Below, piece by piece: positions 19,359-64,000 of a stretch of DNA of 64,000 bases. This DNA is from Eledone cirrhosa (taxonomy: Eukaryota), in the NCBI GenBank assembly GCA_964016885.1, contig OZ024742.1:307830001-307894000 (forward strand), in the 5' to 3' direction. Below the pieces are notes generated by a model. The model worked only from the letters and a program-made list of their open reading frames with translations, was not told where the DNA came from and did no database searches. The translations under genes and the position numbers were made by a program. Position 1 is the first letter of the stretch, and the number at the start of each line of letters is the position of its first letter.

Positions 19359-19546
19359 TGTTTCTACTTTTAGCACAAGGCCAGCAATTTCCCAGTGTAT
19401 TACTGGTACTTTATTTTATCGACCCCGTAAGGATGAAAGGCAAAGTTAACCTCGGCGGGATTTGAACTCAGAATGGCAAGGGCCGTAACTCTATGCTGCA
19501 AAGCATGGCTTCCGACCCTCTACCGATACTGCCAATCCACCGCCCT
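19359..19546 (-). mobile_element. tRNA-derived SINE with 17-bp TSD
   Basis: TSD tgaatacgttagataat at 19342-19358 and 19547-19563. Confidence 0.92.
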
Positions 19547-24046: not shown

Positions 24047-24051
24047 TGAGG

Positions 24052-25719: not shown

Positions 25720-25739
25720 AGTAAATATCTATGGGAACA

Positions 25740-40154: not shown

Positions 40155-40335
40155 GTGGATTGGCAGTATCGGTAGAGGGTCGGACGCCATGCTTTCCAGC
40201 ATAGTTACGTCCCTTTATGATCTGAGTTCAAATCCCGCCGAGGTTGACTCTGCCTTTCATCCTTACGGGGTCTATAAAATAAAGTACCAGTAATACACTG
40301 GGTAATTGCTGGCCTTGTGCCTAACGTAGAAACAA
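40155..40335 (+). mobile_element. tRNA-derived SINE
   Basis: Full match. TSD attatctat. Confidence 0.9.
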
Positions 40336-41073
40336 TTATCTATTTTAGGAAAGCAATGCCTAAAGAAATCTTCATTAATTACTAATTAATGTATTTTCAC
40401 TGAGACATGATGTTTTCTGAAGCAATAATTTCTATTTAATTAAATTCAAGAGGAGTCTATCTTGGTACTGCAAAACTTCAAAACTACAAACCTGCATGTC
40501 GTTTAACATCAATGTCGAAATAGGGCAAATTTCATCTCTCAAACCATTCCCTCACACTTTCTATCTTTTACTCTAAATTCTTGTTTGTATTACACGTTGT
40601 TTGTTAAGTTGATAATTAAATTGCATGTCTCACTGAATAAAACATACACTGTAACTAAATATTTCAGATAAAATAGGCAACATCTAATTGATATGACATT
40701 ATAGCCTAGAATAGTGTTAAACGGTTACGTTGTGTAAGTTATTGTGGGTTATCGAAAGTTTATTGCTTGTCGTACAGTCAATTACTTGAATTACTAGCCG
40801 TGATTATCCCATCTTTTTAGAGAATTTATCAGCGATTATGTTATCCAAAATCTTTCATTTCCCATGCGCACTTGGGAATGTGGTTTGGAAAAGATTGAGC
40901 TATTATTGGTAGAATGCCAAGGAAACTCGTAAAGTGACCATCATTGCCTTGTAATAAAAATGGTTCTATGCCTTAGCTACGGACGGGCAACTATTGTTAA
41001 ACGAAGCAATGTGGTTAATTAATAGACATTAGTATAATCTCTAGATTGAGAGAAGTCATTTATCTAATTAATT

Positions 41074-41257
41074 GTTTCTACTTTAGGCACAAGGCCAGCA
41101 ATTACCCAGTGCATTACTGGTACTTTATTTTATCGACCCCGTAAGGATGAAAGGCAAAGTCAACCTCGGCGGGATTTGAACTCAGATCATAAAGGGACGT
41201 AACTATGCTGGAAAGCATGGCGTCCAACCCTCTACCAATACTGCCAATCCACCACCT
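41074..41257 (-). mobile_element. tRNA-derived SINE with 18-bp TSD
   Basis: TSD gtcatttatctaattaat at 41056-41073 and 41258-41275. Confidence 0.92.
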
Positions 41258-42138: not shown

Positions 42139-42204
42139 TTATATATAGTGTATTGATATGATTGATGTTATATTGATAATTCCTACTTGCTCCTTATTAT
42201 ATAC

Positions 42205-42600
42205 ATAATGGTTTCTTATATAGGCACAAGGCCGTCAATGTTGGGGGAGTAGAAAGTCGGTAAAATTGACTCTAGTGTATTACTGGTACTTTATTTTATC
42301 GACCCCGTAAGGATGAAAGGCGAAGTTAACCTCGGCAGGATTTGAACTCAGATCGTAAAGGGCCTTATTATATACATAATTGTTTCTATTTTTGGCACAA
42401 GGCCAGCAATTTGAAGGAGAAGGAAAAGTCGATTAAATAGAACTCAGTACTTACTGGTGCTTTATTTCATCGACCCCCGTAAGGATGAAAGGCAAGTTTA
42501 ATCTCGGGATGGCATTGAAATCAGAGTGTAAAGGGCCGTAACTCTATGCTAAAAAGCATGGCATCCGATCTTCTAGCGATACTGCCAATCCACCGCCTTT
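42205..42600 (-). mobile_element. Two tandem SINE copies (one 5'-truncated)
   Basis: 42209-42364 and 42380-42598. ccttattatatacataat is duplicated around the first copy. Confidence 0.85.
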
Positions 42601-42629
42601 AGTAGTAGCAATAATAATAATAATAATAA

Positions 42630-43012
42630 TGTGGACAAAGAAAAAAGATTGTGTCTGATTGTGGATGTGACCTGCCCGTTCGACACGAGAGTGCAAGAGA
42701 AGGAGAGGGAGAAAATTAACCGATACCAGGACCTAAAGTGGGAGGTGAAAAGGATTTGGAACTGCCATGATGTCAAAGTGATCCCGATTGTCATAGGCGC
42801 ACTGGGGACTATCTCCAAAAGTTTCCAGGGATGGTTAAAGAACATCGGCCCCTTCACGCTTTTTGGAACGCTTCAAAAGGCATGCTTGCTTGGAACAGCA
42901 AGAACCCTCCGATACGTCCTGAATATCTGAGGCTGCAGGTAGTGGCTTGATATTCATTCCAACGGACTTTCCAGTTAACCAACATCAATGACTGAGATTC
43001 AAGGAATAACAA
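42630..43012 (+). mobile_element. R4/Dong LINE family D1, 3' fragment (endonuclease C-terminus plus UTR)
   Basis: ORF 42631-42930 IVDVTCPFD..EKINRYQDL..PIVIGALG. (TAA)n on both sides. Confidence 0.92.
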
Positions 43013-43034
43013 CAATAATAATAATAATAATAAT

Positions 43035-45229
43035 GATTTCTTTATTAACCACAAGGGTTACATAAAGTAGACATTAAGGACAGTACAGGACAATATAGGG
43101 CGGTACAAATGGGCATTTCTGCGCGTAAAAAACAAGAAACAGAGGATGTAATAATAGAACAATGAAAAAAGTCCCCTATAGGGGGGATACTTCCGAGGGA
43201 CATTTGTGGAGAAAGCCCATTAAAAGGCCACAGTGACCCTGACCACCAGGGCAAGTGCCCTATCCCAGTTTTCCACCTTTAATTTACAGACAGATACTCA
43301 GAGTAAGCCCATTCACTCGGGCCATACTTGCTTCTCTCACCCATCTTTCGAACAAATGCTGGGAAGAGAACACTTCTCTCTCTAACTTGATTTTCCATTT
43401 CAAATGAAAGTTAAAAAAGTTAATCAGGGCATCACCGAAGAGGGCTGTGAGCGCCTGAAGCCATTCCAGTCTCCAAGCGCCCCCTCTCGGTCTTGGCTTG
43501 ACCCAGGACTGCAGCTCCGTCAAGGAAACGAGCTGGGGAAAGACGCGTCTAGCAAACGGCGACCACACCTGATCACCGTCGAGGAAGAGTGGAGATGTCG
43601 TAGCCTGAGCGCGTGTCTGCGCATCATCAGCCACGGCATGCCCAGCTCTCCACGTAGCGGGTGTTGACAGCAGATGGACCGCCTGACCATCGGAGCCCGT
43701 CCCTTCCACAAAAAGCGAAAGAGCAAGCGCTCCACCGCAGTCAGGCGGGGCTTAGGACAAGGTACGACGGTCAGGCGGTAGTAGATGACGGACGCGGTAG
43801 TAGATGACGGACGCGGACTTCTGTTGTTGCTGCTACAGTTGTTGCTGCCATCTCTGCTACTGGTGGTGTTGATGGTTGTGTCACTGGGGTGGGTAGGAGA
43901 GGTGGCCTCAACCTTTTAGCCTGAGGGCAGAAAGCCCTTAGGTGGGTTCCTTCACCACAAACGACACTCCTAGGTCTTCTGCCCTCGACAATTACCGTGA
44001 GGTGGCTGCCGTCAGTGAGGTCTATTACCTCTGGGATCTCCTCAATGCTTTTTTTGGTCCGCTTGGATCAGGAGATCCATCCCAGATCCGGACCAGTTCT
44101 CCTGCTTTTCTTTTGCTATTGCTATTATTTTTGTGTTGGCTTCGATGCCGGCGAGGACGGCCGCTATTAGCCAGGGAATTTCGATCGCCGGTGGAACGTG
44201 GGTCACCCTGATCTTTACGAGTCTCTGGCCACAATAGCTTGGGACGAGTGTGAAGTCGTCACTTCTTAATGGGGCCATGGAGTGTTCTCTAGCCTCCTCT
44301 GGTGTTTCAAAGAACACGTCCACGGTTCCATATTTCTGCCCACGTCTGGTGTGGTTTGTTTTGCCGACACATGTCCCAAAGCTTTTTGGATTTGGGACTC
44401 GGATGCCCGTTCCACTCGGCGCGATTTTACATTTATTGTTCGATACAACACGGTGCATAGGCGCCGATGCTCCATTTTATTAGGTGTGTGGGGGGGGGTG
44501 AGGCTGACCCTGTACCCACTTTCTTTACCATTTGTTTGGCATTTTCTAAATCCTCCTGAGTTACCGTAAATGCTTCGAACTGTTTTGCTACTCTGGCGAA
44601 ACTGAGGGTGGTTTTTATAATGTCATTGTTGTTGTTGTTGCTATCGTTATTTGTGTTAATATTAATTTTAGTTTCAGTTGTGGTGGTGGTGACGTCAGTC
44701 GTCTTTGGTGTCGGAAGAGTCCATTTTGCTTGATTTCATTTCGACATCACGAGTTAATTTATTTTTTCTTCTTTTGTTTCTGTTGTCGCGGTGGGGGTGG
44801 GGGTTGTTGCGGTGGTGGTGGTGGTAGAGGCTTTAACACCTGCAGTCATTGGTAATGGCGGGAAATGAATGTCTGCCTGAGACAAATTTAAAATATTGCT
44901 ACTGCTTATATTTTTTGTCGTGTTGGCAAACGTAGTAACATTTACAATGGTGGTGTCGGTGTGAGGTGTTAATTTATGAGGAAGGCTTTCAGCTGCTTGG
45001 TGCAGAGGTGAATTAGCCATTTTTTTTCAAAGAAATTTTTTGATAATAATAAAGGTTTAAATTTTGGGCACAAGGCCCTAATCTTTTTGGGTGTCCTTTT
45101 CGGAAAACAATGTATGTGCTCTTATATATGGTTAACAATAAAAATTTCCCATAAATGGCAATTTTTAACAAACGGAAATAACAAAACTTTGCGGAGCTCA
45201 CGATGATACGATTTACTACGTAGGTCGCC
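43035..45229 (-). mobile_element. Internally deleted Tx1/L1-clade LINE (type A 5'/ORF1 plus remnant of ORF2 3' end)
   Basis: ORF1 from 45020 with RPRSVVCGEGTHLRAFC knuckle. 43035-43800 matches 46944-47355 and 47866-48225. AATAAA then (ATT)n tail. Confidence 0.88.
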
Positions 45230-45277
<48 letters not shown>

Positions 45278-45290
45278 TATTATTATTATT

Positions 45291-46915
45291 CTGTTGTTTG
45301 TCCTTGCCCTGATGCCCTTGACCATTATGCTGCGAAAAGTGAGAGCAGGATACAAGTTGGGAAGGGGAGAGCTTACCATCAATCACCTCCTCTTCATGGA
45401 AGATCTTAAGCTCTTCGGGAAAAGTGAGAAGGAGTTGGATGTGCTTGTTGACACTGTCCGTATTTTCAGCAGTGATATATGTATGCAGTTTGGTATTGGT
45501 AAATGTGGAGTCATTGTGATGAAGGGGGGTAGGTTGAGCAGAAGTAACGGGATCCAGATACCAACAGGTGAGATGATAAAGGAAATTGACTCTGAGGAAG
45601 GATACAAGTATTTGGGCGTTCTGGAGGCTGATGGCATAAAGAACAAAAAAATGAAGGAATTGTTAAGAACTGAATACATTCGGAGAGTAAGGAGCGTATT
45701 GAAGTCACATCTGAACAGCAGAAATGCCATAAGCGCAGTAAATTCCCGAGCTGTGTCTATTATTAGGTACAGTGCGGGAATTCTGAGATGGAATGTTACT
45801 GAACAAAAAGAAATGGATAGGAAGACTAGGAAGCTATTGACTATCTACAACATGTTCCACAAGAGGAGTGATGTCGATAGACTCTACCTAAGGAGATCTG
45901 AGGGTGGAAGAGGTCTTATCAGCATAGAGGACTGTGTTCAGATGGAGAAAAACAACCTATACAAATACGTGACCTATAGTAAGGAGCCAATGCTCAGAAC
46001 TGTACTGAAGGAGGGGACAGTAGGCCAGGGGATGTCCAAGGAGGAAATAACATTAAGGAGGAAGAGCAGCCTTAAGGGAAAATCCCTTCATAGTACCTTC
46101 TTTGAGAAAACTGAATTTAGAGATCCACAAACATGGAACTGGTTGAGAAGAGGAGACCTCAAAAAGGCTACAGAAGGAATGCTAATGGCTGCGCAGGAGC
46201 AGGCCCTCAAAACGAAGTGGTTGAAGCACCATATCTACAAGGAGGAGGCTAGCCCACTGTGCAGGATCTGTGGAGAGAGAGAGGAGACTGTGGCTCACAT
46301 TGTGTCCGAGTGTAAACACCTAGCCCAGACCCACTATAAGGGCTGGAGACACGATGTGATGGGCAGGGTGATCCACTGGCACCTGTGCAAAGTAAACAAT
46401 TTACCACATTCTGAGAAATGGTATGAGCATAGGCCAGAGGCGGTGATGGAGAACAATCAGGTGAAGGTGCTGTGGGATTTTAGGATACAGACGGACAAAA
46501 AACTGGAACACAATAGACCTGACCTGGTGGTTGTGGACAAAGAAAAAAGATCGTGTCTGATTGTGGATGTGGCCTGCCCGTTCGACACAAGAGTGCAAGA
46601 GAAGGAGAGGGAGAAAATTAACCGATACCAGGACCTAAAGTGGGAGGTGAAAAGGATCTGGAACTGCCATGAAGTCAAAGTGATCCCGATTGTCATAGGC
46701 GCACTGGGGACTATCTCCAAAAGTTTCCAGGGATGGTTAAAGAAAATCGGCCCCTTCACGCTTTTTGGAACGCTTCAAAAGGCATGCTTGCTTGGAACAG
46801 CAAGAACCCTCCGATACGTCCTGAATATCTGAGGCTGCAGGTAGTGGCTTGATATTCAATCCAACGGACTTTCCAGTTAACCAACATCAATGACTGAGAT
46901 TCAAGGAATAACAAC
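45291..46915 (+). mobile_element. R4/Dong LINE family D1, 5'-truncated, with open 512-aa ORF 45294-46832
   Basis: HLLFMEDLKLFG, DRLYLRRSEGGRGL, CRICGEREETVAHIVSEC, RHD, HNRPDLVVVD..DV..EK. TAA flanks. Confidence 0.95.
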
Positions 46916-47194
46916 AATAGTAATAATAATAATAATAATAATACTGATTTCTTTATTAACCACAAGGGTTTACATAAAGTAGACATTAAGGACAGTGCAG
47001 GACAATACAGGACGCTACTAATGTGCATTTCTCCGTGTAAAAAACAAAAACAGAGGATGTAACAAAACAATAACAATGAAAAATTCCCCAATATGGGGGT
47101 GACTTCGGAGGGACATTTGTGGAGAAAGCCCAGTAAAAGGCCACAGTGACCCTGACCACCAAGGCAAGTGCCCTCTCCCAGTTTTCCACCTTTA

Positions 47195-50100
47195 ATTTAC
47201 ATATACGTACTCAGAGTAGGCCCATTCACTCGGGCCATTCTTGCTTCTCTCACCCATCTTTCAACAAAATGCTGGGAAGAGAGCACTTCCCTCTCTACTC
47301 TGATTTTCCTTTACAAATGAAACTTGAAAAAGTTAATCAGGGCATCACCGAAGAGGTGAGTGCTCGTCTTCAGCCCTTTCAAACGTGTCCACCATACTAT
47401 CTCTTTCGCCATGGCCACCAGACAGATAAAAACTGCCTGCCCTTCCCGGCTAAAGGAAGAAGGCGGGGCAATCCTCACAATGAACTCAGATGGTAGCCGG
47501 ATCCGTCCTACACACGACAGCAGGTGTTCGACATAAACCCACAAGTCAGAAATTTTCGGACACTGAACGAATGCGTGCAGGATGGTTTCGTCGCCCTGCG
47601 CGCATCTCGGACATGCCCGGCTGACGGCACATCCATGCCTATAGGGTTTATACCGAACTGGCAAGGCTCCTCGGTAGCACTGCCAGGCCAGGGATTTCTG
47701 GAAGTTGTCCATAGGTCCCGGCTCGAAAGTCCTTCCGAGGAGATTGGCTAGTTGATTTTCGTCGACGCCTAGAGTCTCCCCAAGTACGTCGTCGCTCTTC
47801 CCCTCCACTAATCCTCTATAGAACGCCGTGGTGGAGTTTCCACCGATCACATTGCCCGATTGGTCGAGGGCTGTGAGCGCCTGAAGACATTCCAGTCTCC
47901 AGGCGCCCCCTCTCGGTCTTCGCTTGACCCAGGACTGCAGCTCCGTCAAGGAAACGAGCTGGGGAAAAACGTGTCTAGCAAACGGCGACTACACCTGATC
48001 ACCGTCGAGGAAGAGGTGGAGATGTCGTAGCCTGAGCGCGTGTCTGCGCATCATCAGCCACGGCATTCTCAGCCCTCCACGTAGCGGGTGTTGACAGCAG
48101 ATGGACCGCCTGACCATCGGAGCCCGTCCCTTCCACAAAAAGCGAAAGAGCAAACGCTCCAGCGCAGTCAGGCGGGGCTTAGGACAAGGTACGACGGTCA
48201 GGCGGTAGCTGATGACAGACGCGATGTACGCGTTAGCCACCTCCGCTCGACTTTTCAGGGATAGCTTCCTCTCCGCCCATTTCTGGGTGAGAGAAGCCAC
48301 CCTGCTCGTCACCTCGTCCCAGTTTTTGTCCGTCTGGAGGTCCGGACCGAACCAGACCCCTAGCAATTTAACCGGTCCGTCCGTCCCGCGTCCGACGACG
48401 CTGTTGGACGGCATGGACCTGCCTCTCCAGGTGCCAAGCTGCAGGCTCACTGACTTTTCCTGGTTGATCATTGCTCCTGTCACCGCTTCGTATTCTCTTA
48501 GTGTAGTGCCGATCGCCTCGATGTGTTTGGAGTTCGACACCACGACGGTGACATCGTCCGCATATGCTGACACGGATATTCCGCATCCTAGTTCGCGCGG
48601 GACGCCTCTCAACGTCTCCAGTTTGTGCAGTAATGGCTCGAGAGTCAATACGTACAAGAGGGACGAGAGGGGACATCCTTGGCGGACCGAGCGCATGATG
48701 TTGAACGGTTCCGAAAGGTGACCGTTCACTCTCACCACAGAGCAGATGTCACTGTGCATGGCAGCGATCCAGCCTCTGAAGACGGGCCCAAAGCCAGCCG
48801 CCCACAGGACTGCCGCTAGGTAACGAAAGCTTTCGACTGATCTAAATTGATCAAAGACCCACCCGTGCCAGGTTCCCTAGCTACCCTCTCTACGATGTAT
48901 CGCATGAGGTGGAGATTGTCGTGGATGGATCTGTAGGGAATGGCGCATGTCTGTGCCTCTCCCACCAGACCATCAACGACAAGCGCCAACCTCTTTGCTA
49001 GCACCTTGGCCAAAATCTTGAACTCTGTGTTTAGCAGAGTTATGGGCCTAAAATTATCTATCTTATCCCCCTTGTTCGGATCCTTTCTCAGCAGTGCCAC
49101 CGCTCCTCAGCTCACAGAGCTGGGAATTCTCCCGTTCTGTTGCCAGTTGCAGTAGACGTCCGCCAAGAGGCTTCCGAACAAGTCTGGCATCTGTACGTAA
49201 AGTTCATAGGGCAGACCATCCAAACCAGGCGATTTACCCCTTGTGCAGCCAGTCATTGCCTCCCGTACTTCAGCGGCTGTTATCGGCTTTTCGCAACACT
49301 CCGCCTCAGTGGCCGAGAGCCGCGGCAGTCCGTCGAGGTAGACACTAAAGTCCATCCCTCGACCCGGCCCACCGCTGCTCCCGAACAGCTGAGCGAAGTG
49401 TCGCTGAAAAGCTTCACACATTTTCCCGGGATCGAGTAGCATGCGCCCGTTGTGGTCCACCAAAGACCTGATCGTGGCTTTGTTGCCACGGCGTGCTTCC
49501 GCCACTGGGGCCCATTGAACGGCTTTCGTCCCCTCGTGTCGCGATGCCTTTACTAAGCGCCTCGTCTAATTTTCTAACTAGTTCTCCCTCTGCTCTATTT
49601 TTCTCCATTGCTAAAGCCTTACTAAACCTAATGGACTCTATTCTAATCGCTCTTTTCGGAGCAAACCACCACTTGTTGTTGACGATGGCCCCCGTCAACG
49701 CCCACTTAACTAGTTCGCTAATCCGGTCTCTGTAGGCCTTGCGCGCTGGTAAGGACGCGTTTAGCTTCCAGTAGCCGTGTTCTTGTCTATGAAGCCTATC
49801 TAAGTCAAGCACACAGATCACGAATTTGTGGTCCATGTAGCTGACTATCTTGAATTGTGGACAGCCTATGCTAGACCTATCTATTTCCCTACAAAATACT
49901 CTATCTAGATATGATCTGGATGACCCTATGCGATTTGTCCAAGTCCACATTAGCACATTCGGGAAATCCAATCGGTACATGTCAGACAGTTCAAAACGCC
50001 TGAGCAGGTTGGTGAGGCTATTGCACCCTCCTCCTCTATCCGCTAATCCCACACAGTTCCAGCGTGCATCTAAGATCCAGTTCCAGTCGCCCACTAACAC

Positions 50101-50508
50101 TAAAGAGTGGGACGTTCCAAGAAAGGTATCCAGACGCGGGAAGAAATCAGGCCGCCCTGATCCTGTCGGGGCATAGATGGCCACTAGCCTGAAAGCTTGC
50201 CTGTCTCCGCTGGTCACGTCCAGCACCACCAACTTACCCTCTGAGTCCAGGAAGATGGCCCGTATGGCGAGATCCAAACCTCTCCGAAAAAGCACAGCAA
50301 CTCCTCCCCCCGATCCAGGACGGCTGGGAGATGCATACACATCGTAGCCGCCGAAGATCGGTGCGAAGGCCCGTGATTCGGAGATTCTGGTCTCGCTGAT
50401 GGCCACTACTTCTATGTTTAGTGACCTGAGGTCATTGAGCAGGTGGCCCTGTTTCCATGACGACCCCAAGCCACGCGCATTTATGCTGCCTATTCTCAGT
50501 GAGGTCAT
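47195..50508 (-). pseudogene. Tx1 ORF2: APE endonuclease, RT and C-terminal CCHC (zf-RVT), disrupted
   Basis: SINARGL, ISETR, IYAP, GDWN, SYLDRVF, DH; KSPGLDGLPYE, FRPITLLNTEFKILAK, DQSKAF, RQGCPLS, AYADD; CPRC..ETILHAFVQCP. Confidence 0.93.
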
Positions 50509-50542
50509 GTTGAAATGGTGTTGAAAAGATAGGAAAGACCAC

Positions 50543-52292
50543 TTACCTTACTTCTTCTCTCAGAGGAAGGATGGTTTCTCCATCCCTTTTCACTTGATCG
50601 TCTGGTGAAGGGACCGTTGAATCGTCCCTTCGGCTGGTCGTCGGCTCTTCTATGAGTGTGTTCGAATATACTCTCCGGTTGAGAGTCCCTCCTAGGTCTG
50701 TGAAATCACCAACTGCGTTGGGGAATTTCGTTTTAATGTTTGTGTATTGTTTCTGTGCTATTCTTAGCAGTCTTATGTTCGTTTGTGTTTTGATTGTTGC
50801 TGGTATTATGTAGTCGTGCTGTAAAATGTCTGTGTTCAATTATGTAAGTCATTAGTTTCTTGTGTATTTATTGCCGTGCATTTGTTTTTCTGGGGGTGGG
50901 GTGTGGTTCTGCTATTTTCTTGTCGTTGTTGCTGGGTGTGTGTGTTTTGTTGTTGTGTTTGCGATGTTGGTGCTTGTGGTGGTGGTGTTGAAGGTGTTGT
51001 TGTTGTTGGCGGTGGGGTTGTCGCCGGTGGTGATGGTGGTGCTAGTTTGGGTGGTGATGGTGTTGGTGATGTTGCTGCTGTAAGTCTCTTTGCAGTAGCC
51101 TTTACCCTTTATTCATTTCTTTCCTCCCTTTTCGAAGGCGACGATGCGCTGCTTCTGCGTTTGTGCCTTCTTGCGACCTTTTGCCATCCCTCTCCCACCT
51201 CACACTCCATGTCTGATTCTGTGAGGTCGGGGAGGGGTACCAGCTCCACTCTTTCACTTGTTGTTGTTGGCGATGTTTGCAGTGGAGTCTCTGTTGGAGC
51301 TGCAGTTGGTATTACTGTTGTTGTTGTTAATACTTCCACTGCTGCTGCTGCTGTTCTTGATTTCCGTGGCGTGGGTATGGGTGCCACGGACCTATCGTTC
51401 CTAGTTGCCGCTTGTCCTGTTGCTGGTAGCAGTGGAGCCGGTTTCGGAAGCAGGAGGGTTTTCTCCTTTCTCAGGGTCTTCTCGTTGCAGAAGGCCCTGA
51501 GGTGAGTCTTCGATCCACAGCGAAAGCATTTCGGGCGTTTGCCTCAACACTTATGGGCAGTTGAGTGCCGTTATCGAAGTCTATCACATCCGGGATAGCT
51601 TCGATGCATTCCTGGTTGGTTTGGATTAACATCTCAATGGAGGTGCCGAGCCAATCTTCTCTTACTCTTTTCTGTACTTGCAGTACAGTTGTTTTGTCCT
51701 CGATTCCGACGAGGACAGACGCGGTCAGCCAAGAAGGGGCCATCCCGGGGGGACGGGGACGGGGGGACGTGGGTCAGTTTGACCCTCATCATTTTTTACC
51801 CGCAGTAGGAGGGCACCCACACCATTTCCTCGCTCCTTAGGATCACTAAGGATTGAGCCTTTGCCTCCTGGGGTGTGGCAAAAAGCACGTCTACGGTGGC
51901 ATATTTCTTGCCTCGGGTGATATGCGTTTTCCGCTTCCACACAGACCCTAAGGCTTTTTGTATTTGAGCCTCTGTGGCTCTTTCAACCCTACGGGATTTT
52001 GTGCTTACTGTACGGTCCGTGACCGTACAGTGCTGTTGGGTTTCGAACAATTTTTCGGCTGCCTTGCAGATTGCTCGGTGTCCGGTTTTCGTCACCATCT
52101 TCTTCGCTTCCTGTAATTCCTCATTTCTTATGAGGATGGTTTCCAGGTTCTTTGCGATACCTGCAAACGAAATTGGTTTTTCTTTGCTGCTGTTGTTGTT
52201 GTTGTTGTTGTCGTCGTCAGAGCTGCTGTTACTTTTGTTGTTGCTGCAGGTACTACGACTACTGCCGCCGCCGCTGTTGCTGTGGTTGTTGT

Positions 52293-52324
<32 letters not shown>

Positions 52325-52668
52325 TTGCTGCTAATGGTGTTGTTGTTTATGCTGCTGCTGATGCTGTTGCGGCTGCTACTGTTGTTTTCCTTGTCACTGT
52401 TGCTGCTGCTGCTGTTATTACGGCTGCTACTGCTATTATTCATGACGTCAGACGAATGAAATGGGTTTTCGTATTTACCGCACACCTTTTTCGTCATTGT
52501 CGTCGTCGTGGAGAAATGTTCCATGATTTTCACGTGATTTTTCTTGACTGGCGTCGCTTGCGAAAGAGAAGGGAGGGAGAGAGACAATCTTCTCTCTGCT
52601 GTAGTGACGATTGAGGAAGAAGACGGAATGAATGGGAGTGACTTGTGAAAATTCTTTTTGGTAGCCAT
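50543..52668 (-). pseudogene. Tx1 ORF1 type B (S/N-rich N-terminus, zinc knuckle, T/P-rich C-terminus), disrupted
   Basis: ORF pieces 51796-52668, 51471-51743, 51109-51387 and 50543-50839. CFRCGSKTHLRAFC near 51490-51530. Confidence 0.8.
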
Positions 52669-53187
52669 GTTTTTTTGGGTTTAAAATAAATATTGGGCAC
52701 AAAACCTCAATAAGCGGTTATTTAACCCCGAAGGGCCAAATAACGGACAGACAGACCCCTCTCACGAGGAGGAGGGTGTTTTTGTCTACAATTTGGTTAA
52801 AGTTTTAAACAATTTACAATTGTTATAACGGTCAAAATTTACAATACTTTACAGAGCCGAGCCTCCGTCAACCATGGCATTCAATAATAATAATAATAAT
52901 GATAATAATTTCATTTATTAGCCACAAGGGCCGACATGTAGGGGACAATATAAAGACAGGGACAGTGGGGGTTTACAATAAGGTTTAGAAAAAGTTCACA
53001 ATGGCAAGACTAATTTAACAATGCAGATATAAAAAAATATAAAATAAACTATGCATAAATATAAGAAAATATATTCCCCGATATGGGGTGGACGACCCCG
53101 GGGTGACTCAGGTACCCCACCAATCCTGAACCGCCCAGCGCTTCTAGGGCACCCAGGGAGAGCACCCCTCTCCTCAAGATAGCTAGC

Positions 53188-56100
53188 CTATAGGCGCATG
53201 GTCAAAGTAGGCCCATTCACATGATCCATTCTCGCCACATTCATCCACCTTTTAGCAAATGTACTGGGGGCAGCACTTCTCTCTCCACCCTCACCTTCCT
53301 TTCCGGGTGAAACTTGAAGAAGTTGATGAGGGATTGGCCGAAGAGAAAAGTGCCTGTCTTCACTCCTTTTAATCTGATCCACCATATAACCTCTTTTGCA
53401 ACTGCCACCAGACAGAGGAAAATTTCCCGCTCTTCTTCACCTAAGGAAGGCGGCGGATCGATCTTTACTATGGTCTCGGCCGATAGCCGGATTCGTTCCA
53501 CACGCGACAGTAGCAGTTCGACATAACTCCACAAGTCAGTAATGCACGGACATTTGACAAGTGCGTGCAGATGGGTTTCGTCGTTCTGTGCGCATCTTAG
53601 GCAGGTTTGTCTGACAGCACTTCGGTGCCTGTAGAGTTTATCCCGAATCGGCAGTGCCCCCCGGTAGCACTGCCAAGCGAGGTATTTCTGGAAATTGTAC
53701 ATCGTCCCCGGATCGAAAGTCCTCCGGTACAGACTGATCAGTTCGACTTCGTCGAGGCCCAAAGCTTCTCCGAGTGCGTCATCGCACTTGCCCACCACTA
53801 ATCCTCTATAGAACTCGAGAGTGGAAGTTCCACTGATCGCATTGCCCGCTTGGTAGAGGGCAGTGAGTGCCTGGCAACATTCCAGGTGCCAGTCACCCAG
53901 TCTCGGTTTCTTCTTGACCCAGGACTGCAGCTCAGTCAAAGAAACGCGCTGCGGAAAGGACCGTCAGATAAACGGCGACCACACCTGTTCACCGTTTAGG
54001 CAGAATACCTGGAGATGTTGCAGCCTAAACGCATGTCTGCGCATCTTTAGCCACGGCATGCCCAGCCCTCCGCGTAGAGGGTGCTGGCAGCAGATGGACC
54101 GCCTCACTAACGGAACTTGTGCCCTCCAAAGAATTTGAAGAGGAGCCGTTCCAACTTGACGAGGCGCAGACGGGGGCAAGGCACGACGGTCTGGCGGTAG
54201 TAGATGACGGACGCGATGTACGCATTCGCACCTCCGCGCGACCTTTCAGTGATAGCTTCCTCCCAGCCCATTTTTGGGCGAGACTGGCTACTCTGCTCGT
54301 TACCTCGTCCCAACTCTTTTCCACCTGGACGTCTGGTCTGAACCAAACCCCGAGCAACTCTACCAGTCCGTCCGTCCAGCGCCCCACGACGCTGTTGGAC
54401 GGCATAGGCCTACCTCTCCAGGTTCCGAGCTGCAAGCCCACCGACATTTCCGGGTTAAGTTTGGCTCCTGTCAACATTTCATATTCCTTCAATACGTTGC
54501 CGACCACCTCGATTTCTGAGGTGTTCGACACAATCACAATCACTGCCTTTCCACGTCCCGGTTCGAGCGGGATGCCCTGCAACAGCTCCAGCTTCCGCAG
54601 TAAAGGCTCGAGAGTCAATACGCACAGAAGGCAAGAGAGGGGGCACCCTTGACGGACCAATCGGGAGAGCCGAAATGATTCCGAAAGGTGGCCATTAACC
54701 TTGACCACCGAGCGTGTGCCGCTGTGCATTGCAGCGATTCAGCTTCTGCAGACAGGGCTGAAGCCAGCTGCTTTGAGGACAAATTCCAGATACCGATGGT
54801 CGACCCTATCGAATGCTTTCGATTGATCTAAATTGATCAGTGCCCCACCGAAGCCAGGTTTACACGCTACCCTCTCTATGATGTAGCGCATGAGGTGGAG
54901 ATTGTCATGTATGGACCTGGCTGGGATTGCGCAAGTTTGTGCCTCCCCAACCAAATCCTCGACGACAAGCGCCAATCTCTTTGCTAACACCTTGGCCAAA
55001 ATCTTAAACTCTGTGTTGAGCATAGTTATGGGCCTGAAGTTGTCTAATGTATCCCTCTTGTTCTCGTCTTTCCTTATCAGCGTCACCACTCCCTTGCTCA
55101 CAGAACTGGGAATACTCCCATTCTGCTGCCAGTTGCAGTAGAGTGCTTCGAGGAGATCGGAGAACAAGCCTGGTATATTTACGTAAAGCTCGTAGGGCAG
55201 GCCGTCCAAACCGGGTGACTTGCGCCTCATGCAGCCGACAAGGGCCTCTTGAATTTCGGCTGAAGTAATCGGCCTTTGGCAGCGCTCAGCGTCGACCGTC
55301 TAGATGCGCGGCAAGCCGTCAAGGTAGGGACTGATATCTGCTACTCTCTCTGACTCGCCACTCTCTCCGAACAACCGAGCAAAGTGCTGGCGAAAGGCCT
55401 CACACATCCGCTTGGAATCGCTTATCTCGTGTCCGTCTCGGTCCGCAAAAGACCGAATTGTGGTTTTATTACCAAGCTGCGTCCCCGCCACGCGGGCCCA
55501 TCGAACAGCTTTGGTTCCCTCGTTTCTCAGCGCACGTGCCTTAGCTCTGACAATGCAACCTTCGTGTTTCGCATGGAAGAAATGGGCTAATGCCATTCTC
55601 GCCGCTAGAACATCAGTTGCAATGCCACTACAAATAGCCTCGTCTAACTTATCTACCAGCTCCCCCTCCTTTCTATTTTTCTCTAACGCTAGTTCTTTGC
55701 TGAACTCTATCGAAGTTATTCTAATCTCTCTTTTGAGAGCCCCACCATCTGTTGTTGATGATCCCCCTGTCAACATTTGCTTAACTAAATTGTTGACTCG
55801 GTCCCTGTAAGCCTTACGTGCCGGAAATGACATGTTCAGCTTCCAGTAACCCGGTCCCAACCCACGCGTTTTATCTAGCTTGACCATACAGATCACAATT
55901 TTGTGATCTGAATAGGCGACTGTTTAAAAAGTGGGCAGCCTACACTATTTCTATTTATTTTTCTAATGAAGATCCTGTATATATACGATCTAGATGACTC
56001 CATTCGGTTGGTCCATGTCCATACTGGCACATTGGGGAAATCTAGTCGATACCTGTCAAACAGTTGGAATTGGCTGAGTAGGTGCTTGAGGCTTTTGTAC

Positions 56101-56582
56101 CCCCCGCTCCTATCAGCTACTCCCACACAATCCCAGCGTGCGTCTAAGATGGCATTCCAGTCCTCCGCTAACAGTAAAGGGCGAGACGTACCCAGAATGG
56201 TCTCCAGGCGCCTAAAGAAGTCCGGTCGTCCGGCCCCTGTAGGGGCGTAGACGGCCAGTAGTCTAAAGGCACAAACTTCGCTACTGCTCACATCCAAGTC
56301 CACCAACTTACCGTCCGGGTCCCGGAAGATCAACCTTACCTCAAGATCCAGTCCTTTCCTAAACAGCACTGCCACCCCACCCCCCATTCCCGGCCTGCTA
56401 ACAGATGCGAAGATCTGATAGTCATCGAAAATGGGGGCTAGTGCGCGCGTGTCGGAAATTATGGTCTCGTTGACGGCAATCACATCCATTTCCAGTGACC
56501 TGAGGTCGTTGAGCAGGCGACCCTGCTTTCAGGGTGACCCCAGGCCGCGAACATTTAAACTTCCTACTCTTAATATGGCCAT
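53188..56582 (-). pseudogene. Tx1 family C ORF2 (APE, RT, CCHC), disrupted
   Basis: SLNVRGL, VYAP, PGYWKLN, KSPGLDGLPYE, DQSKAFDRVDH, RQGCPLS, CLRC..ETHLHALVKCP. Confidence 0.92.
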
Positions 56583-56611
56583 GTTGGCAAGCTAAAAGTG
56601 AGAGGGGAGGT

Positions 56612-58533
56612 TTACTTACCTCCCGGGGTCTTGTGAAGGTCGGGTGGTTCGACCTCCATGGGTGGTGGGGTTTCTTTTGGGAACCTCTTTAAAAGTCTCG
56701 ATGTGGGTTTCACATTCGGAGTTCCCACGTCTTGAGGAAAGCTCTCCCGAATTTCTTTTAAGGAATCGAGTGACATTCGGACCAGAAGCAAATCTTCTGG
56801 CACGCAAAATGTGCTCATTTCAAAAATCTCCCGCTCTGTTTGAATGTCCTCGCTTCGTGCTAAGAGGGCCATCAGTTTATCGTTGGCCCTCCTGACAAGC
56901 ACGAAGTTTTTAACATTTTGTTGGTGTAGTTTTATTTGTTTTCGTTTTAGTGACTGTGGTGCTGTTGATGGTTTTAGTGGTGTTGTTTCGGATATGTCTG
57001 TGTTTGTTGTAGGTGTGGTGTCTGCAATTTCAGGTATTTGTGTGTTTATTTGTACTTGTGTTTGTTTAGGTTGTTTGCGTTTCGTAGATTGTGGGGGTGG
57101 TGTCGATGTTGCTGTTGGTGGTGATGTTATTGGGGAAGTGTTTGCGTTAGTGGTGTCTGTATTTTTTGTTGTGTATATTTTTCTGTTTTGTTGGGGCTTT
57201 TTTTTGTGAGTTTTCTGTTTTCTTTGCACTTTTGGGTTTTCCTTCATCTTCGCTGCTGGAAGACAAAGGGTCTGTGGCTGTGAGTGTCTCTGTGTCTGTG
57301 TGTGCGTTTATTATTTTGTCTATGTGTATAATGGGGGGGGGGTAGGGGGAGTGGGAGAGCGTTTTCCCCTTGGATTGGGTTCGGTGTTGGTGGTGGTCCG
57401 GCTGTTTTTATCCGTGTCTTTGTTGGTGTTGTTTTTGGTGGTGGTGGTGCAGCTTTCCGTGCTGACACTGGCGTTGGCAACAAAGGAGGTTTGCGACCCC
57501 CTGCATTTTTGCGCTGAGGGCAGAAGGCTTGCAGATTCGTTGCTTCCTTGCAGTCGAAGCAGTATGGCCTTCTTCCTTCAGTGATTAGTTGGATTGTTGT
57601 CCCGTCCTGCAGGCGGGCAAAATCCGGGATGTTGTTCATGTCCTCCGGTTTATTTGGAGAAGAATCTCCAAATCCATTCCGGACCAGTCTTCTCTCTCTG
57701 TCCTTTTGATATCCAGGAGGGTAGTGTCTGTCCCCTCCTCGATTACGCATCCCAGCAGCCACCATATGTTCATTCCAGGTGGGATGCTGGGAATTCGGAC
57801 CTTTACTGTCCTTTTACCCATGTAGGATGGGTGCATGATAATGCGTTCCGTTCTGCAGGAGGTCACCGATTGCTTAATAGCAAGGCCCTCGGTTTTGAAC
57901 AGTACCGAGATGGTACCGAACTGTTTGGCTCTTGCTTTATACTCTATGTCACTCCCGATGCACTCCAAAGCAGCCTCAACCTCTGCTTGGCTGGCAAGTT
58001 CCACTTTTCGTCTCTGCACCGAAATGCATCAAAAGTACACCGTCCTCCTTTGCATGGCCGCTATTGCCCCGTCCGGGATGGTCAGGTTTGCCCAGGACTT
58101 CTCCCGTTTAATTAACCTCCACGCCTGGGCCAACTGTTCGTCTTTATCGCTAATATCAATATTCAATAAGCGCTTTGTTTTTGCTGCTTCTGCAGCAAAT
58201 GTGGTGCTTCTGATGCTCTTGTTGTTGGTGTTGTCATTCTTGCTTTTGTTATAGGTGTTGTTGTTGTTATTTTGTTTGTTGTTGCTGTTGCCACCGCCAT
58301 CCGTGTTTACATTGAAGTTGTCGGTGTTATTGTCGTTGTTGCTCTGAGTTGTTGTTGTTGTTATGGTGGTGGTGGTGGTGGTGGTGATGTCGTTTTCAGA
58401 TGATACTGCTGCCAACACAAAAGGTTGTGATGGTAGCTTTTGAGTTTTGCCTTCACATTCACAAATATACAGTGGCTGCTTTTGAAATTTTGACCTGAAC
58501 GATGTTTACCGTTTCGAGGTCGAAAATTTCCAT
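56612..58533 (-). pseudogene. Tx1 family C ORF1, disrupted
   Basis: Homologous blocks RRKVELASQAEVEAAL, FGTISVLF, PSYMGKRTVKVRI and EGRRPYCFDC. Confidence 0.78.
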
Positions 58534-58779
58534 ATTTTTTTTATTTTGGTGGGGAAGCGATTTTTTTCGAAGTTTTTAAAAATAAATCTGAATATTTGGG
58601 CTTAAAGCCCGAATATTGAGATGTATCCCTTCCTTGAAACCAAGGTAGGTACCTTATGTTTCGTTAACGACAAGAAAATACAAAAACTGATACTTTAAAA
58701 CAGCTTAAAGTTACGAACCTTTTCCCACGCAGACTTGTCCGTCTTCACACATGTGCGTCAAGTAATAAAATAATAATAA

Positions 58780-60888
58780 TGGATAAATGCCTTCACAGAG
58801 TCTCATGAGCTGTTAGCCCAACTTTACAATGAAATGGTTAAGGAGCCAGAAATGATACCATCATGGCTAGTTAACGGCATTACATTCCTACTTCCGAAGA
58901 ATGATGAGACAAACAATCCCCAAAATTACAGACCAATAACTTGCTTGACCACAATGTATAAAATTTTAACATCAGTCCTAACTGAATACACATATGATCA
59001 CCTGATAACAAATGATCTATTTCCCAATGACCAGAAAGGGTATAAACGAGGCTCATATGGCTGTAAAGATCAGCTTTTGGTTAGCAAAATGATACTGGAA
59101 GATTGTCATAATAGACACACAAATCTATCAATTGCTTGGATAGATTACAAAAAAGCATTCGATAGTTTACCACACGGTTGGATTGAAAAATGTTTAGAGA
59201 TTTTCAAAATATCTCCCGTTGTCAGGAGGTTGCTGTCATTCAGTATGAAGACATGGAAAACGACACTCCTTTTGAATAGTGAAAAAATATCACTGGATGC
59301 TGGAGAAATTAATATTAATTGTGGAATTTTTCAGGGTGACTCTTTATCACCGCTTTTATTCTGCATCGCACTTATACCATTAAGTAAAATGCTCAATCAA
59401 ACAAAACATGGATATAAAGTCTATGACAAAACCATTAATCACTTGTTCTACATGGATGACATGAAACTATTTGCAAAAAATGATGAACAATTGCAAGGGC
59501 TATTATCCACTGTGAAGCAGTTCAGTGATGACATTAAAATGGAGTTTGGACTAGATAAATGCGCCAAAAGAACGTTCACCAGGGGAAAGCTGCTGAAAGG
59601 TTCAGACATTAATCTTGATCGGGGGAATGTGATAAGAGAACTTGATCAAGAGGAAACTTACAAATATCTAGGTGTTTGTAAAGGAAACGGAATCAAGCAC
59701 TCGAGAATGAGGGAAAGGATAAGAAAGGAATGTTACCGCAGAGTAAGAGCAAACTTAAGGACGGAATTGAATGCAAGGAATAGGATCAATGCCATAAACA
59801 CTCTTGCTATACCAGTAGTAACTTACAGTTTCAATGTCATCAACTGGTCAAAAACAGAGATCCGTAGGCTCGATACAAAAGATGCACAAATATACAGTAA
59901 TGGACTACAAATTTCAGAAGTTCCATTTACTGCTGAAATGAAAAACACAGAAAAAGCAAAGCAGGTAAAAGTAACTGCAAAGAAAGAACTGCTACAGAAA
60001 CTGGCTAAGAAATGGCAAGAAAAGCCTTTGTATGGAAAATACCCAGAAAGAGCTAACAATCCTGATGTTGACAAAATTTTAACCCATCAGTGGTTGGCAT
60101 CCCCTGGACTGAAATCGGAGACTGAATCACTAATTTTATCTGCACAAGATCAGTGTCTGCCAACAAAAAATTACCAAGCCAACATAATAAGAAAATGGAT
60201 GCAACCCATTATGCCGTGTATGTAAAAAACAACCAGAGACCATTGATCATATAATTTCAATGTGCAGTCCTATAGCTCCAAAGGAATACCTAAACAGGCA
60301 TGACAGAGCTGCGCAATGCATACATTGGATGTGTAAGCATTTTGACCTGCGCCATCAAAAGAATTGGTGGGAGCATCAACCACCTCCCATACTTGAAAAA
60401 GATCACATCTCAATCTTGTGGAACTTTAGCATCCAAACAGACCGAAAAATAGATATAATACTGATATAATACTGAAGGACTTTAAAAAGAGGGTATGCCT
60501 GCTAATTGATATGTCCGTTCCAATAGACAAGAATATATCTATAAAACATTTGAAAAATTGAGCAAGTATAAAGACCTGGAGATAGAAATTGGAAAACTGT
60601 GGAAATTGAGAACTAAAACGACACCAGTGGTTGTAGGCGCTCTAGGAATGATATCTAATGATTACTTATCGCAAATCCCAGGAAATACAAAAGATAGTAC
60701 TAGTGGGAACTGCCCATATACTAAGGAAGATTCTGTCAATATAAGTACATCACAAGTCTAAACAGCTGAAAATGCAAGTGTGTGTATGTGTGTTCTTTCT
60801 TGAACATGGCGGACCTTGTTGTCTCTTTAGGTCACTGGTTGTGACTTGGTGATAACTCGTATGAACATAAATCAAGATAAATGCAATT

Positions 60889-60889
<1 letters not shown>
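58780..60889 (+). mobile_element. R4/Dong LINE family D2, 5'-truncated and disrupted
   Basis: ORF 58834-60225 YRPITCL, DYKKAFDSLPH, GIFQGDSLSP, FYMDDMKLFA; then CRVC..ETIDHIISMC..RHD and endonuclease remnants. TAA flanks. Confidence 0.93.
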
Positions 60890-60922
<33 letters not shown>

Positions 60923-60926
<4 letters not shown>

Positions 60927-61109
60927 TGTTTCTACTTTAGGCACAAGGCCAGCAATTACCCAGTGCATTACTGGTACTTTATTTTATCGACCCCCGTAAG
61001 GATGAAAGGCAAAGTCAACCTCGGCGGGATTTGAACTCAGATCCTAAAGGGACATAACTATGCTGGAAAGCGTAGCGTACGACCCTCTACCGATACTGCC
61101 AATCCACCG
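60923..61109 (-). mobile_element. tRNA-derived SINE inserted in the (TAA)n spacer
   Basis: Full match. The tail runs into (ATT)n. Confidence 0.92.
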
Positions 61110-61118
61110 TATAATAAT

Positions 61119-63230
61119 GCTTTCTTTATTAACCATAAGTGTTTACACAAAGTAGACATTAAGGACAGTAGAGGACAATACAGGACGGTACAAAAGGAAG
61201 TCTCTGATGTCTTTGGGGAATTTTTTTTTAGTGTAGTGTACGTTTTCTGTGTGATGCGAGTGATTTGTATGTGTGGAGGTGGTGTGAACTTTTGGGTTGT
61301 TGTGTAGTCTTTTTCTGTGATGCTGGTGTTGTGTTGGATGTAGTGTAATAATTGGTTGTTGTTCAAATTTATTGATGTGTAGTGTGTATCGTTTTGGTTG
61401 TTTTGTTTTGTTTGCGTTTTTTGTGGGTTTGTTTCTGTTTCGCTTTTTGGTGACTTTTGTGGTGTTGGTGATGGTGGTGTTGGGGTTAATGATGGTGCTG
61501 GTGTTGGTATTTGTGGTGATGGGGTTGGTGATGCTGGTGTGGATGGTGGCATAGCTGTCCTAACTTTTTTGTTTGATAGTTTATTTGTTTCCCTCTGTAT
61601 TCTGTTTTTGGAGGGGGAAGGAAGGGGATTTTTTCTTTTTTGGTTTCTTTTTCTTTTTTTTCTTTTTTTCTGATACCGTTTCCCACTCCTCGTCGTCACA
61701 ATCTGTCTCCAGTTGCGATAGGTCGGGGAGTGGAAAATCCTCCACAGGCGTTGGTTTTGGTTGTGGCGTGGTGGATGATGTAGGCGCTGGTGCTAGTTCT
61801 GGCGCGTTGGGTGGTGGTGGTGTTGGTTTTGCTACTGTTGCTGGGGTTGTTGCTGTTACAGTTGCTTCTGTTGTTGCTGCTACAGTTGTTGCTGCTACAG
61901 TTGTTGCTGCCATTTCTGTTGCTGGTGGGGATGATGGTTGAGTCACTGGGCTGGGAAAGAGAGGTGGCCTCAACCTTTTAGCCTGAAGGCAGAAAGTCCT
62001 TAGGTGGGTTCCTTCACCACAAACGACACACCTAGGCCTTCTGCCCTCGACGATTACGATGAGGTGGCTGCCGTTAGTGAGGTCTATTACCTCTGGGATC
62101 TCCTCAATGCTTTTTTGGTCCGCTTGGATCACGAGCTCCATCCCAGATCCGACCAGTTCTCCTGCTTTTCTTTCGCTATTTCGATTATCTTGGTGTTGGC
62201 TTCGATGCTGGCGAGGATAGCAGCCATTAGACAGGGAATTTCGATGGCCGGTGGAACGTGGGTCACCCTGATCTTCACGAGTCTCTGGCCACAATAGCTT
62301 GGGACGAGTGTGAAGTCGTCACTTCTTAATGGGGCCATGGAGTCTTCTCTGGCCTCCTGTGGTGTTTCAAAGAACACGTCCACGGTTCCATATTTTTGCC
62401 CACGTCTGGTGTGGTTTGTTTTGCCGACACATGTCCCAAAGCTTTTTGGATTTGGGACTCGGATGCCCGTTCCACTCGGCGCGATTTTATGTTAATCGTC
62501 CGATAAGGGGTGAAGCTGACCCTGTACCCATCTTTCTTTACCATTTTTTTGGCTTCTTCTAATTCCTCCTGAGTTACCTGGGATGCTTCGCACTTTTTTG
62601 CTACTCTGGCAAAAAACAAGGTTTTCTTATTCTCATTGTTTCTGTTGTTGTTATCGTTATTTTTGTTATTGTTAATTTTAGTTTCAGTTGTGGTGGTGGT
62701 GGCGTCAGTGGTGTTCGGTGTGGAAGAGTTCATTTTGGCTGAGTTCGTTTCGATATCACGAGATAATTTATTTTTTTCTTTTGTTTCTGTTGTCGCTGTG
62801 GTGGTGGTGGTGGTGGTGGTGGTAGGTTCAACACCTGCAGTCATTGGTAATGGCGGGAAATGAATGTCTGCCTGAGACAAATTTAAAATATTGCTACTGC
62901 TTATATTTTTAGTGTTGGCAAACGTAGTAGTATTTACAATGGTGGTGTCGGTGTTAGGTGTTAGTTTGTGAGGAAGGCTCTCAGCTACTGGGTCAGCTGT
63001 GAGTCGGCCATGATTTTTCAAAGAAATATTTCTTTTATGTTTGATAATTATAAAAGTTTAAATTTTGGACTCAAGGCCCCAATCTTTTTAAGTGTCCTTT
63101 TCAGAAAACAATGTATGTGCACTTATATACATTTAACAATAAACATTTTCCATGAATGGCAATTTTAAACAACTGAAAATAACAAACCTTTGCGGAGCTC
63201 ACGATAATACGATTGACTACGTAGGTCGCC
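61119..63230 (-). mobile_element. ORF1-only Tx1 type A derivative (no ORF2) with intact 5' end and ~85-bp 3' tail
   Basis: 61860-63230 is homologous to 43820-45229. EGRRPRCVVCGEGTHLRTFC. 61119-61200 matches the 3' terminus at 43035 and 46944. Confidence 0.88.
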
Positions 63231-63236
63231 AATAAT

Positions 63237-63267
<31 letters not shown>

Positions 63268-63268
<1 letters not shown>

Positions 63269-64000
63269 GAGAAAACTGAATTCAGAGATCAACAGACATG
63301 GAACTGGTTGAAAAGAGGAGACTTTAAACAGGCTACAGAAGGAATACTAATGGCTGCGCAAGAGCAGGACCTCAAAACGAAGTGGCTGAAACACCATATT
63401 TACAAGGAGGAGGCTAGCCCACTGTGCAGGATCTGTGGAGAGAGAGAGGAGACTGTGGCTCACATTGTATCCGAGTGTAAACACCTAGCCCAGACTCACT
63501 ATAAAGGCTGGAGACATGATGTGATGAGCAGGGTGATCCACTGGCACCTATGCAAAGTAAACAATTTACCACATTCTGAGAAGTGGTATGAGCATAAGCC
63601 AGAGTCGGTGATAGAAAACGATCAGGTGAAGATGCTGTGGGATTTTAGGATACAGACGGACAAGAAACTGGAACACAATATACCTGACCTGGTGGTTTTG
63701 GACAAGGAAAACAGATCGTGGCTGATTGTGGATGTCGCCTGCCCATTCGACACGAGAGTGCAAGAGAAGGAGAGGGAGAAAATTACCCGATACCAGGAAT
63801 TAAAGTGGGAGGTAAAAAGGATTTGGAACTACCATGAAGTCAAAGTGGTCCCGATTGTCATAGGCCCACTAGGTACTATCTCAAAAAGTTTCCAGGGATG
63901 GTTAAAGAAAATTGGCCCCGCCCCGCTTTTTGGAACACTTCAAAAGGCATGCTTGCTGGGAACAGCAAGAACCCTCCGATATGTCCTGAATATCTGAGGC
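63268..64000 (+). mobile_element. R4/Dong LINE family D1, 5'-truncated, runs off the window
   Basis: ORF 63308-63997 is near-identical to the C-terminal part of 45294-46832. Confidence 0.93.

Follow-up and report, generated by a model that had tools for sequence, protein, structure and literature searches.

Dong-like and Tx1-like retrotransposons occupy (TAA)n microsatellites in opposite orientations in the octopod Eledone cirrhosa

We analyzed a stretch of 64,000 nucleotides from Eledone cirrhosa (assembly GCA_964016885.1, contig OZ024742.1, positions 307,830,001 to 307,894,000 of the forward strand), referred to as the window, together with copies of its transposable elements (TEs) elsewhere in the genome. 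Dong-like elements, which belong to the retrotransposons with a restriction-like endonuclease (RLE), are inserted in (TAA)n microsatellites in one orientation. Tx1-like elements, whose lineage carries an apurinic/apyrimidinic endonuclease (APE), and a short interspersed element (SINE) are inserted in the other. Each lineage likely nicks and primes the opposite strand, and reinsertion likely builds polarised arrays. We consider this reading very probable; it builds on the directly observed strand rule, on tracts at both sides of insertions, on copies of varied age and truncation, and on clustering.

A polarised array and a genome-wide strand rule

The array in the window comprises four Dong-like RLE elements on the plus strand together with four Tx1-like APE elements and one SINE on the minus strand, and (TAA)n is the sole linker. 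Self-comparison, tract listing and mapping to full-length natural copies gave the order D1(+), Tx1-A(-), D1(+), Tx1-B(-), Tx1-C(-), D2(+), SINE(-), Tx1-A(-), D1(+). Nine tracts were found at the element junctions, each reading AAT on the plus strand. An earlier note on this DNA had claimed this order, these strands and a (TAA)n tract of a single polarity at every junction, all of which the three approaches confirmed. The tract that it placed near 61110 is present, but at 61111-61118 it holds fewer than three perfect units; the one at 58763-58780 has four. Its count of four minus-strand APE elements holds for strand and lineage, but both Tx1-A copies, which keep their 5' ends and are internally deleted, themselves lack the APE domain. 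For coordinates see Table 1.

Table 1. Features of the array and examples of SINE copies in the window.
Feature	Position	Strand	Basis
Older SINE remnants preceding the array; the last adjoins the first tract	42192-42600	-	self-comparison, copy mapping
(AAT)7 tract between SINE 5' end and D1 5' truncation	42610-42630	+	tract listing
D1 copy 1, 5'-truncated Dong-like RLE element, last 377 bp	42630-43006	+	98.1% to full-length natural copy
(AAC/AAT)n tract, D1 / Tx1-A tail-to-tail junction	43007-43034	+	tract listing
Tx1-A copy 1, 5' and 3' ends intact, two internal deletions, without APE domain	43035-45229	-	copy mapping
(AAT)16 and inverted (ATT)5 stub, head-to-head junction; tail of neither element	45230-45290	+	tract listing
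D1 copy 2, 5'-truncated, youngest; end of the reverse transcriptase (RT), CCHC and PD-(D/E)XK motifs	45290-46908	+	99.4% to full-length copy
(AAT)n tract, D1 / Tx1-B tail-to-tail junction	46909-46943	+	tract listing
Tx1-B, near full length, stops and frameshifts; open reading frame (ORF) 1, ORF2 with APE, RT, zf-RVT	46946-52882	-	Pfam, copy mapping
(AAT)n tract, Tx1-B 5' end / Tx1-C 3' end	52883-52909	+	tract listing
Tx1-C, near full length, broken; ORF1, ORF2 with APE, RT, zf-RVT	52910-58762	-	Pfam; ~73% to Tx1-B over ORF2
Short imperfect (AAT)n, Tx1-C / D2 head-to-head junction	58763-58780	+	tract listing
D2, second Dong-like RLE family, 5'-truncated, internal deletion, RT domain	58780-60888	+	Pfam, copy mapping
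(AAT)12 tract, D2 3' end / SINE 3' end	60889-60926	+	tract listing
SINE, 3' hairpin with loop CTTGT matching Tx1 3' ends	60927-61110	-	end alignment
Short tract, <3 units, SINE 5' end / Tx1-A 3' end	61111-61118	+	sequence
Tx1-A copy 2, 5' untranslated region (5'UTR)/ORF1 part fused to last ~80 bp	61119-63230	-	85.5% to copy 1
(AAT)n tract, Tx1-A / D1 head-to-head junction	63231-63268	+	tract listing
D1 copy 3, 5'-truncated, of an older subfamily (91-93% identity with copies 1 and 2), runs past the window	63269-64000+	+	copy comparison
SINE copies (examples)	60927-61110, 12124-12304, 19359-19542, 40155-40334, 41073-41253		sequence comparison

In coordinates continued from the window, the array goes on with D1(+), a Tx1 fragment(-), two SINE pieces(-) and D1(+), and ends at ~65,110. 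A second array of opposite polarity follows after ~220 bp (65,327-74,560). It begins with ATT tracts and consists of SINE(+), Tx1-C(+) and four Dong-like pieces(-). Since this flipped neighbour obeys the same rule, the rule follows the tract and not the chromosome. The first 41.5 kb of the window contain only 4 tracts of at least 3 units, none of which abuts a D1, D2 or Tx1 copy. The site is interstitial (307.9 Mb on a 378.9 Mb contig of a 3.0-Gb assembly) and sharply bounded, and it is one of many such arrays.

To cover the rest of the genome we searched it with six ends of these long interspersed nuclear elements (LINEs) and with the SINE, kept the best 30 of 40 scored matches per query and removed the query's own copy, which left 29 each; the 140 to 2367 candidates per query seen at first look are lower bounds. 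A tract of the predicted strand was present at 168/174 LINE ends outside the window. At the 3' side this applied to D1 in 29/29, D2 in 28/29 and Tx1-A/B in 28/29 cases, and at the 5' side to Tx1-A in 29/29, Tx1-B in 29/29 and Tx1-C in 25/29 (83/87 together). The Tx1 5' ends are decisive for targeting, because no tail of the element's own explains the repeat there. Kojima's threshold for a target preference in Tx1 is more than 20% of flanks (PMC4494074); here 83/87 of the 5' ends and 28/29 of the 3' ends of Tx1-like elements lie in (TTA)n.

A count centred on tracts gave the same picture. After removal of 34 of 235 sequences (the window, its own loci and right neighbours, loci inside larger ones and one overlap), 341 tracts at 201 other loci were available. 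Dong-like ends run with TAA in 235/241 cases, Tx1-like ends against it in 176/181 and SINE ends against it in 65/67. Wherever another LINE adjoined the far side of a tract, it was oriented as predicted (93/93 genome-wide; binomial p = 2e-28, a value that is overstated because neighbours within one array are not independent). Tracts flank both sides of insertions, with medians of 8-14 units. Among the 5' truncation points with boundaries inside the locus, 14/14 for D1 and 7/11 for Tx1 lie in tracts, several with a non-library flank beyond the tract; a further 14 (D1) and 18 (Tx1) copies extended off the locus, and D2 was omitted because an internal deletion in its reference copy mimicked truncations. 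The earlier note had named random flanks or orientations across the genome as grounds for refuting its reading; copies were found instead in TAA tracts of the predicted strand, in favour of that reading. The feature is a genome-wide rule, and the window is no special locus.

The elements are also clustered. Another LINE lies across the tract at 93/174 element ends, compared with 11/60 tract sides in a systematic sample of 39 stretches totalling 390 kb (Fisher p = 2e-6). This sample contained 13.7 kb of Tx1-like and 2.0 kb of Dong-like DNA and 30 tracts of at least 4 units, 9 of them beside these LINEs; LINE-adjacent tracts were longer (median 11 units, n = 9) than free tracts (median 5, n = 17). 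This clustering is genuine; much of the excess is accounted for by a preference for long pure tracts. Six loci, picked for size because their arrays overran a 10-kb stretch, were extended; their polarised arrays measure 20.9, 11.6, at least 20.5, 20.7, 20.2 and at least 29 kb.

Two side observations concern distribution. About three quarters of the best LINE matches lie on the four largest contigs (~54% of the assembly) versus 16/40 SINE matches, which may be a ranking artefact. Among the best 80 of 530 metagenome loci with relatives, 0/80 had a TAA-type tract of at least 5 units; these relatives are distant (best segments 24-42% identity) and thus uninformative on target conservation.

The elements and the SINE paired with Tx1

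Full-length D1 measures ~4.55 kb and has one frame of ~1140 amino acids (1141 in full-length copies), which is open in five fetched loci. The protein contains an RT domain (RVT_1) followed by motifs, read by eye, that we take to be CCHC and PD-(D/E)XK; Pfam detected no Exo_endo_phos (APE) domain. Absence of an N-terminal zinc finger or Myb domain distinguishes R4/Dong from R2 and NeSL, and neither gave a Pfam match at E <= 0.05 in the D1 protein, which is a weak negative. R2 proteins are its best solved relatives. In D2, Pfam found an RT domain. Judged from sequence, the architecture and the TAA target of D1 and D2 fit the R4/Dong clade. Among the 120 homologues listed, no informative name occurs, and atlas entries have generic names.

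The three D1 copies in the window share 98.1%, 91.2% and 91.5% pairwise identity. Copy 2 shares its 3' 306 bp without a mismatch with 18 other loci; its nearest relatives are therefore copies elsewhere, not those beside it in the array. One of two AAC-interrupted patterns is shared by 35/51 D1 tails, so the element RNA is the likely template of the first repeat units. The D1 3' end lacks AATAAA, whereas Tx1 3' ends carry it. Two 5' variants of D1 exist. Bombyx Dong has a ribozyme resembling that of hepatitis delta virus (HDV) at its 5' junction (PMC3774820), a feature that does not define the clade. In the D1 5' region, by comparison, Rfam gave no match to such a ribozyme, and neither did a descriptor of our own, run without a positive control; over window positions 40,000-64,000 and the D1 5' region Rfam reported no match of any kind at gathering score. 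A common ancestry of the Dong-like and Tx1-like 5'UTRs, suggested by eye, was not supported, as local alignments across the clades (15 pairs, two lengths) gave p >= 0.007 and no consistent region.

An inverted (ATT)5 stub at 45276-45290 closes the tract that starts at 45230. Short inverted (ATT)m stubs between an (AAT)n tract and a truncated Dong-like 5' end occur in 3/119 cases, in addition to the window and L156 (loci L003, L012, L217, L156 and the window). They may stem from snap-back synthesis during 5' joining.

The Tx1-like elements are ~5.9-6.0 kb long and have a zinc-knuckle ORF1 (CX2CX4HX4C in Tx1-A and Tx1-B) and an ORF2 of the APE-RT-CCHC type (Pfam Exo_endo_phos, RVT_1 and zf-RVT). 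A gag-like zinc knuckle in ORF1 is a Tx1 trait. The best solved relative of ORF2 is human L1 ORF2p (174 bits); a protein from Stylophora named 'Transposon TX1 149 kDa' scores 304 bits at 32% identity, and the closest named relative, from Argonauta hians, is 73% identical. By similarity score, A, B and C are closer to Tx1 than to mammalian L1. Tx1-A and Tx1-B (L228:2086-7975 and L231:2013-8049) agree to ~94% in ORF2 and 3'UTR and differ clearly in 5'UTR and ORF1, which suggests a swap of the 5' module. A hairpin with the loop CTTGT, followed by a short TTA run, was also seen in the Tx1-A 5'UTR (window 45050-45075, minus strand); it may have been captured from the 3' end of an element that once lay next to it upstream.

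The last 30 bases of the SINE resemble the ends of Tx1-A, B and C (anchored alignment, p 0.001-0.0025) and not those of D1 and D2 (p ~0.75). At the 3' ends of both SINE and Tx1 a short stem encloses the loop CTTGT, and A-T and G-C pairs replace one another in it between Tx1 subfamilies; the search pattern preset the loop, and the exchanges amount to few independent events. Stem-loops shared by the 3' ends of SINEs and LINEs are described in PMC3747384, and excerpts of PMC4758252 contain nothing on this SINE. ATTAT follows directly after 74/91 near-full copies. Most SINE copies lie outside microsatellites, with at least 4 ATT units following in 19/91. Target duplications of 7-30 nt (peak 18-20, most 12-20 nt) were found in 40/61 copies outside microsatellites; 37/40 have C or T immediately before, which gives the insertion site Y/ATTAT (slash, point of insertion). 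These sequence features indicate that the SINE is likely mobilised by Tx1.

Two further elements lie outside the array. A broken RLE element of the same general kind on the plus strand (window 2016-4760, ~32% protein identity to D1) sits between repeats of the ATAC/ACAT type, not TAA; it may represent a family that targets another microsatellite. On the minus strand, 22595-25728 hold a Penelope-like element with a weak RT match, a GIY-YIG-like motif seen by eye and TATT-type repeats at its end.

Proposed mechanism and alternative explanations

Based on the strand rule we propose the following mechanism. In standard target-primed reverse transcription the element RNA is complementary to the strand that is nicked first; this would be the TTA strand for Dong-like proteins and the TAA strand for Tx1-like proteins. 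The Tx1-type nick would fall at 5'-ATAAT/R-3', a position that the target duplications of the SINE mark. This T/purine step resembles that of L1. Repeat units at the 3' end of the RNA would then pair with the primer. As each insertion leaves tracts on both sides, one site becomes two, usually long and pure, and insertion would beget insertion. Regeneration of the target, already claimed in the earlier note, agrees with the tracts found on both sides of each copy. No host function would be needed.

Several points weigh against this mechanism. Older copies are under-sampled, because the searches return the best-matching copies, and the systematic sample is a small baseline. With tracts of at least 7 units only, the clustering excess shrinks (93/174 versus 8/26, p = 0.036). 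The rule is violated by 6/241 Dong-like ends, which stem from short inverted stubs, and by 5/181 Tx1-like ends; 4/11 Tx1 5' boundaries have no tract, and the extended array of at least 29 kb includes an inverted Dong segment. Identical junctions occur at L025-L027, L151/L152, L157/L164 and L217, in tandem or 58-133 kb apart. Over the left part of the array, contigs from 4/7 sequencing runs match as fragments only; none spans a junction, and no empty orthologous site was seen.

Targeting might instead depend mainly on the repeat units at the RNA 3' end, which would pair with any nicked AT-rich primer; the endonucleases would be loosely specific and the RNA tail would set the strand rule. We regard this as possible though fairly unlikely. 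It would account for the inherited interruptions in 35/51 D1 tails and for the SINE, likely a passenger of Tx1, which needs only ~5 matching bases and is mostly found outside microsatellites (19/91 with at least 4 ATT units). The LINEs, however, keep to tracts much more closely than the SINE does (83/87 for Tx1 5' ends), and the preference for C or T just outside the duplicated sequence (37/40) cannot result from pairing. Moreover, endonuclease swaps shift specificity in TRAS and SART (Takahashi and Fujiwara 2002, cited in PMC4494074). Pairing is compatible with strand-specific nicking as a contributing step. Of the earlier note's proposal that two endonucleases read opposite strands of one repeat, the TAA/TTA targeting and the opposite strands of the RLE and APE lineages stand; the endonucleases may not be the only readers, since pairing between RNA and primer may contribute.

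It is extremely improbable that tandem or segmental duplication, or mis-assembly through TAA tracts, produced the array. The D1/Tx1 tail-to-tail junction does occur twice in the window (92.6% over 827 bp), as a duplication would leave it, and the identical junctions at some other loci point the same way. The two halves of the repeated junction have nevertheless diverged unevenly (D1 98%, Tx1 89%), and junctions of this type recur on other contigs. Mis-joining would keep the polarity but would not place tracts at different 5' truncation points. Copy ages and truncation points all differ, which favours serial insertion. Together with the tracts on both sides, this supports the earlier note in preferring serial insertion to a single duplication: the window array is very probably not one duplication, although duplication enlarges some arrays elsewhere.

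The arrays could also be silencing loci kept by the host, in which read-through of each lineage is antisense to the other and which act as a dual-strand source of PIWI-interacting RNA (piRNA) or as a heterochromatin seed. The geometry guarantees antisense to the partner, AATAAA is present at Tx1 3' ends and missing at the D1 3' end, and arrays of at least 20 kb recur (5/6 loci, picked for size). Insertion rules alone, however, fully account for the geometry and require no selection, the site has sharp limits and an interstitial position, and D1 is very young (19 identical 306-bp matches; frames of ~1140 amino acids open in five loci), all of which makes host maintenance very unlikely. A piRNA cluster would yield PIWI-bound RNAs of 24-32 nt and bear repressive chromatin; the results offer no support for the piRNA-cluster-like or heterochromatic block suggested in the earlier note. 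Slightly less unlikely, though still doubtful, is a broader proposal: octopod genomes would carry dispersed, self-building, strand-polarised transposon traps, in which RLE and APE elements nick opposite (TAA)n strands, rebuild each other's target and make mutual antisense RNA, and the arrays would be a spontaneous piRNA source and a main source of long AAT microsatellites.

Relation to known elements and implications

The RLE clades are described in PMC4640811. Dong inserts in TAA in silkworm, mosquito and snail (PMC3812793), and Bombyx Dong, DongAg and snail DongBg share with D1 and D2 the target and the orientation on the TAA strand (PMC3812793, PMC3774820). D1 likewise has a single ORF with RT, CCHC and PD-(D/E)XK motifs. 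The difference is that D1 and D2 sit in long arrays, both tandem and mixed, alongside a Tx1-like partner. Microsatellite-specific Tx1 elements (Kibi in TC, Koshi in TTC, crocodilian elements in TTCC/TTTC, telomeric Tx1-1_ACar) have the same two ORFs, an APE-RT-CCHC ORF2 and simple-repeat insertion (PMC4494074, PMC10088271). The Eledone target (TTA)n is unlisted for Tx1 in the excerpts of these papers; here it is shared with an RLE element and accompanied by a SINE with the same 3' hairpin.

A similar layout is that of TRAS and SART in Bombyx, two families in opposite orientations and in arrays in one simple repeat, (TTAGG)n (PMC10088271). Both of those are telomeric APE elements of the R1 clade, whereas an RLE and an APE lineage meet here on dispersed interstitial microsatellites. 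R1 and R2 in 28S ribosomal DNA likewise combine an APE and an RLE element on one repeated target. They use two distinct gene sites in the same orientation, however, and do not rebuild each other's site.

Dong-R4 and L1-Tx1 elements are abundant and recently active in octopus, Dong-R4 notably in Octopus vulgaris (PMC13282606); excerpts of PMC13282606, PMC8967140 and PMC9115989 do not describe target choice or arrays. Our literature search, which excluded Repbase and the supplement of PMC4494074, where such a target may be listed, returned no TTA-specific Tx1 and no Dong/Tx1 arrays. The finding is a new combination of known behaviours: (TTA)n as a likely new Tx1 target, shared strand-wise with Dong, plus a SINE paired with Tx1.

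The result provides a simple layout rule for two major groups of octopod LINEs which published annotations, in the excerpts cited, count without describing their targets. The duplications of the Tx1-paired SINE mark the nick site. The system lets two unrelated endonuclease folds be compared in nature, each on its own strand of the same 3-bp repeat, and includes a very young D1 family with frames still open. Some TE hotspots in octopods, and difficulties with AAT microsatellite markers there, may likewise follow from the rule.

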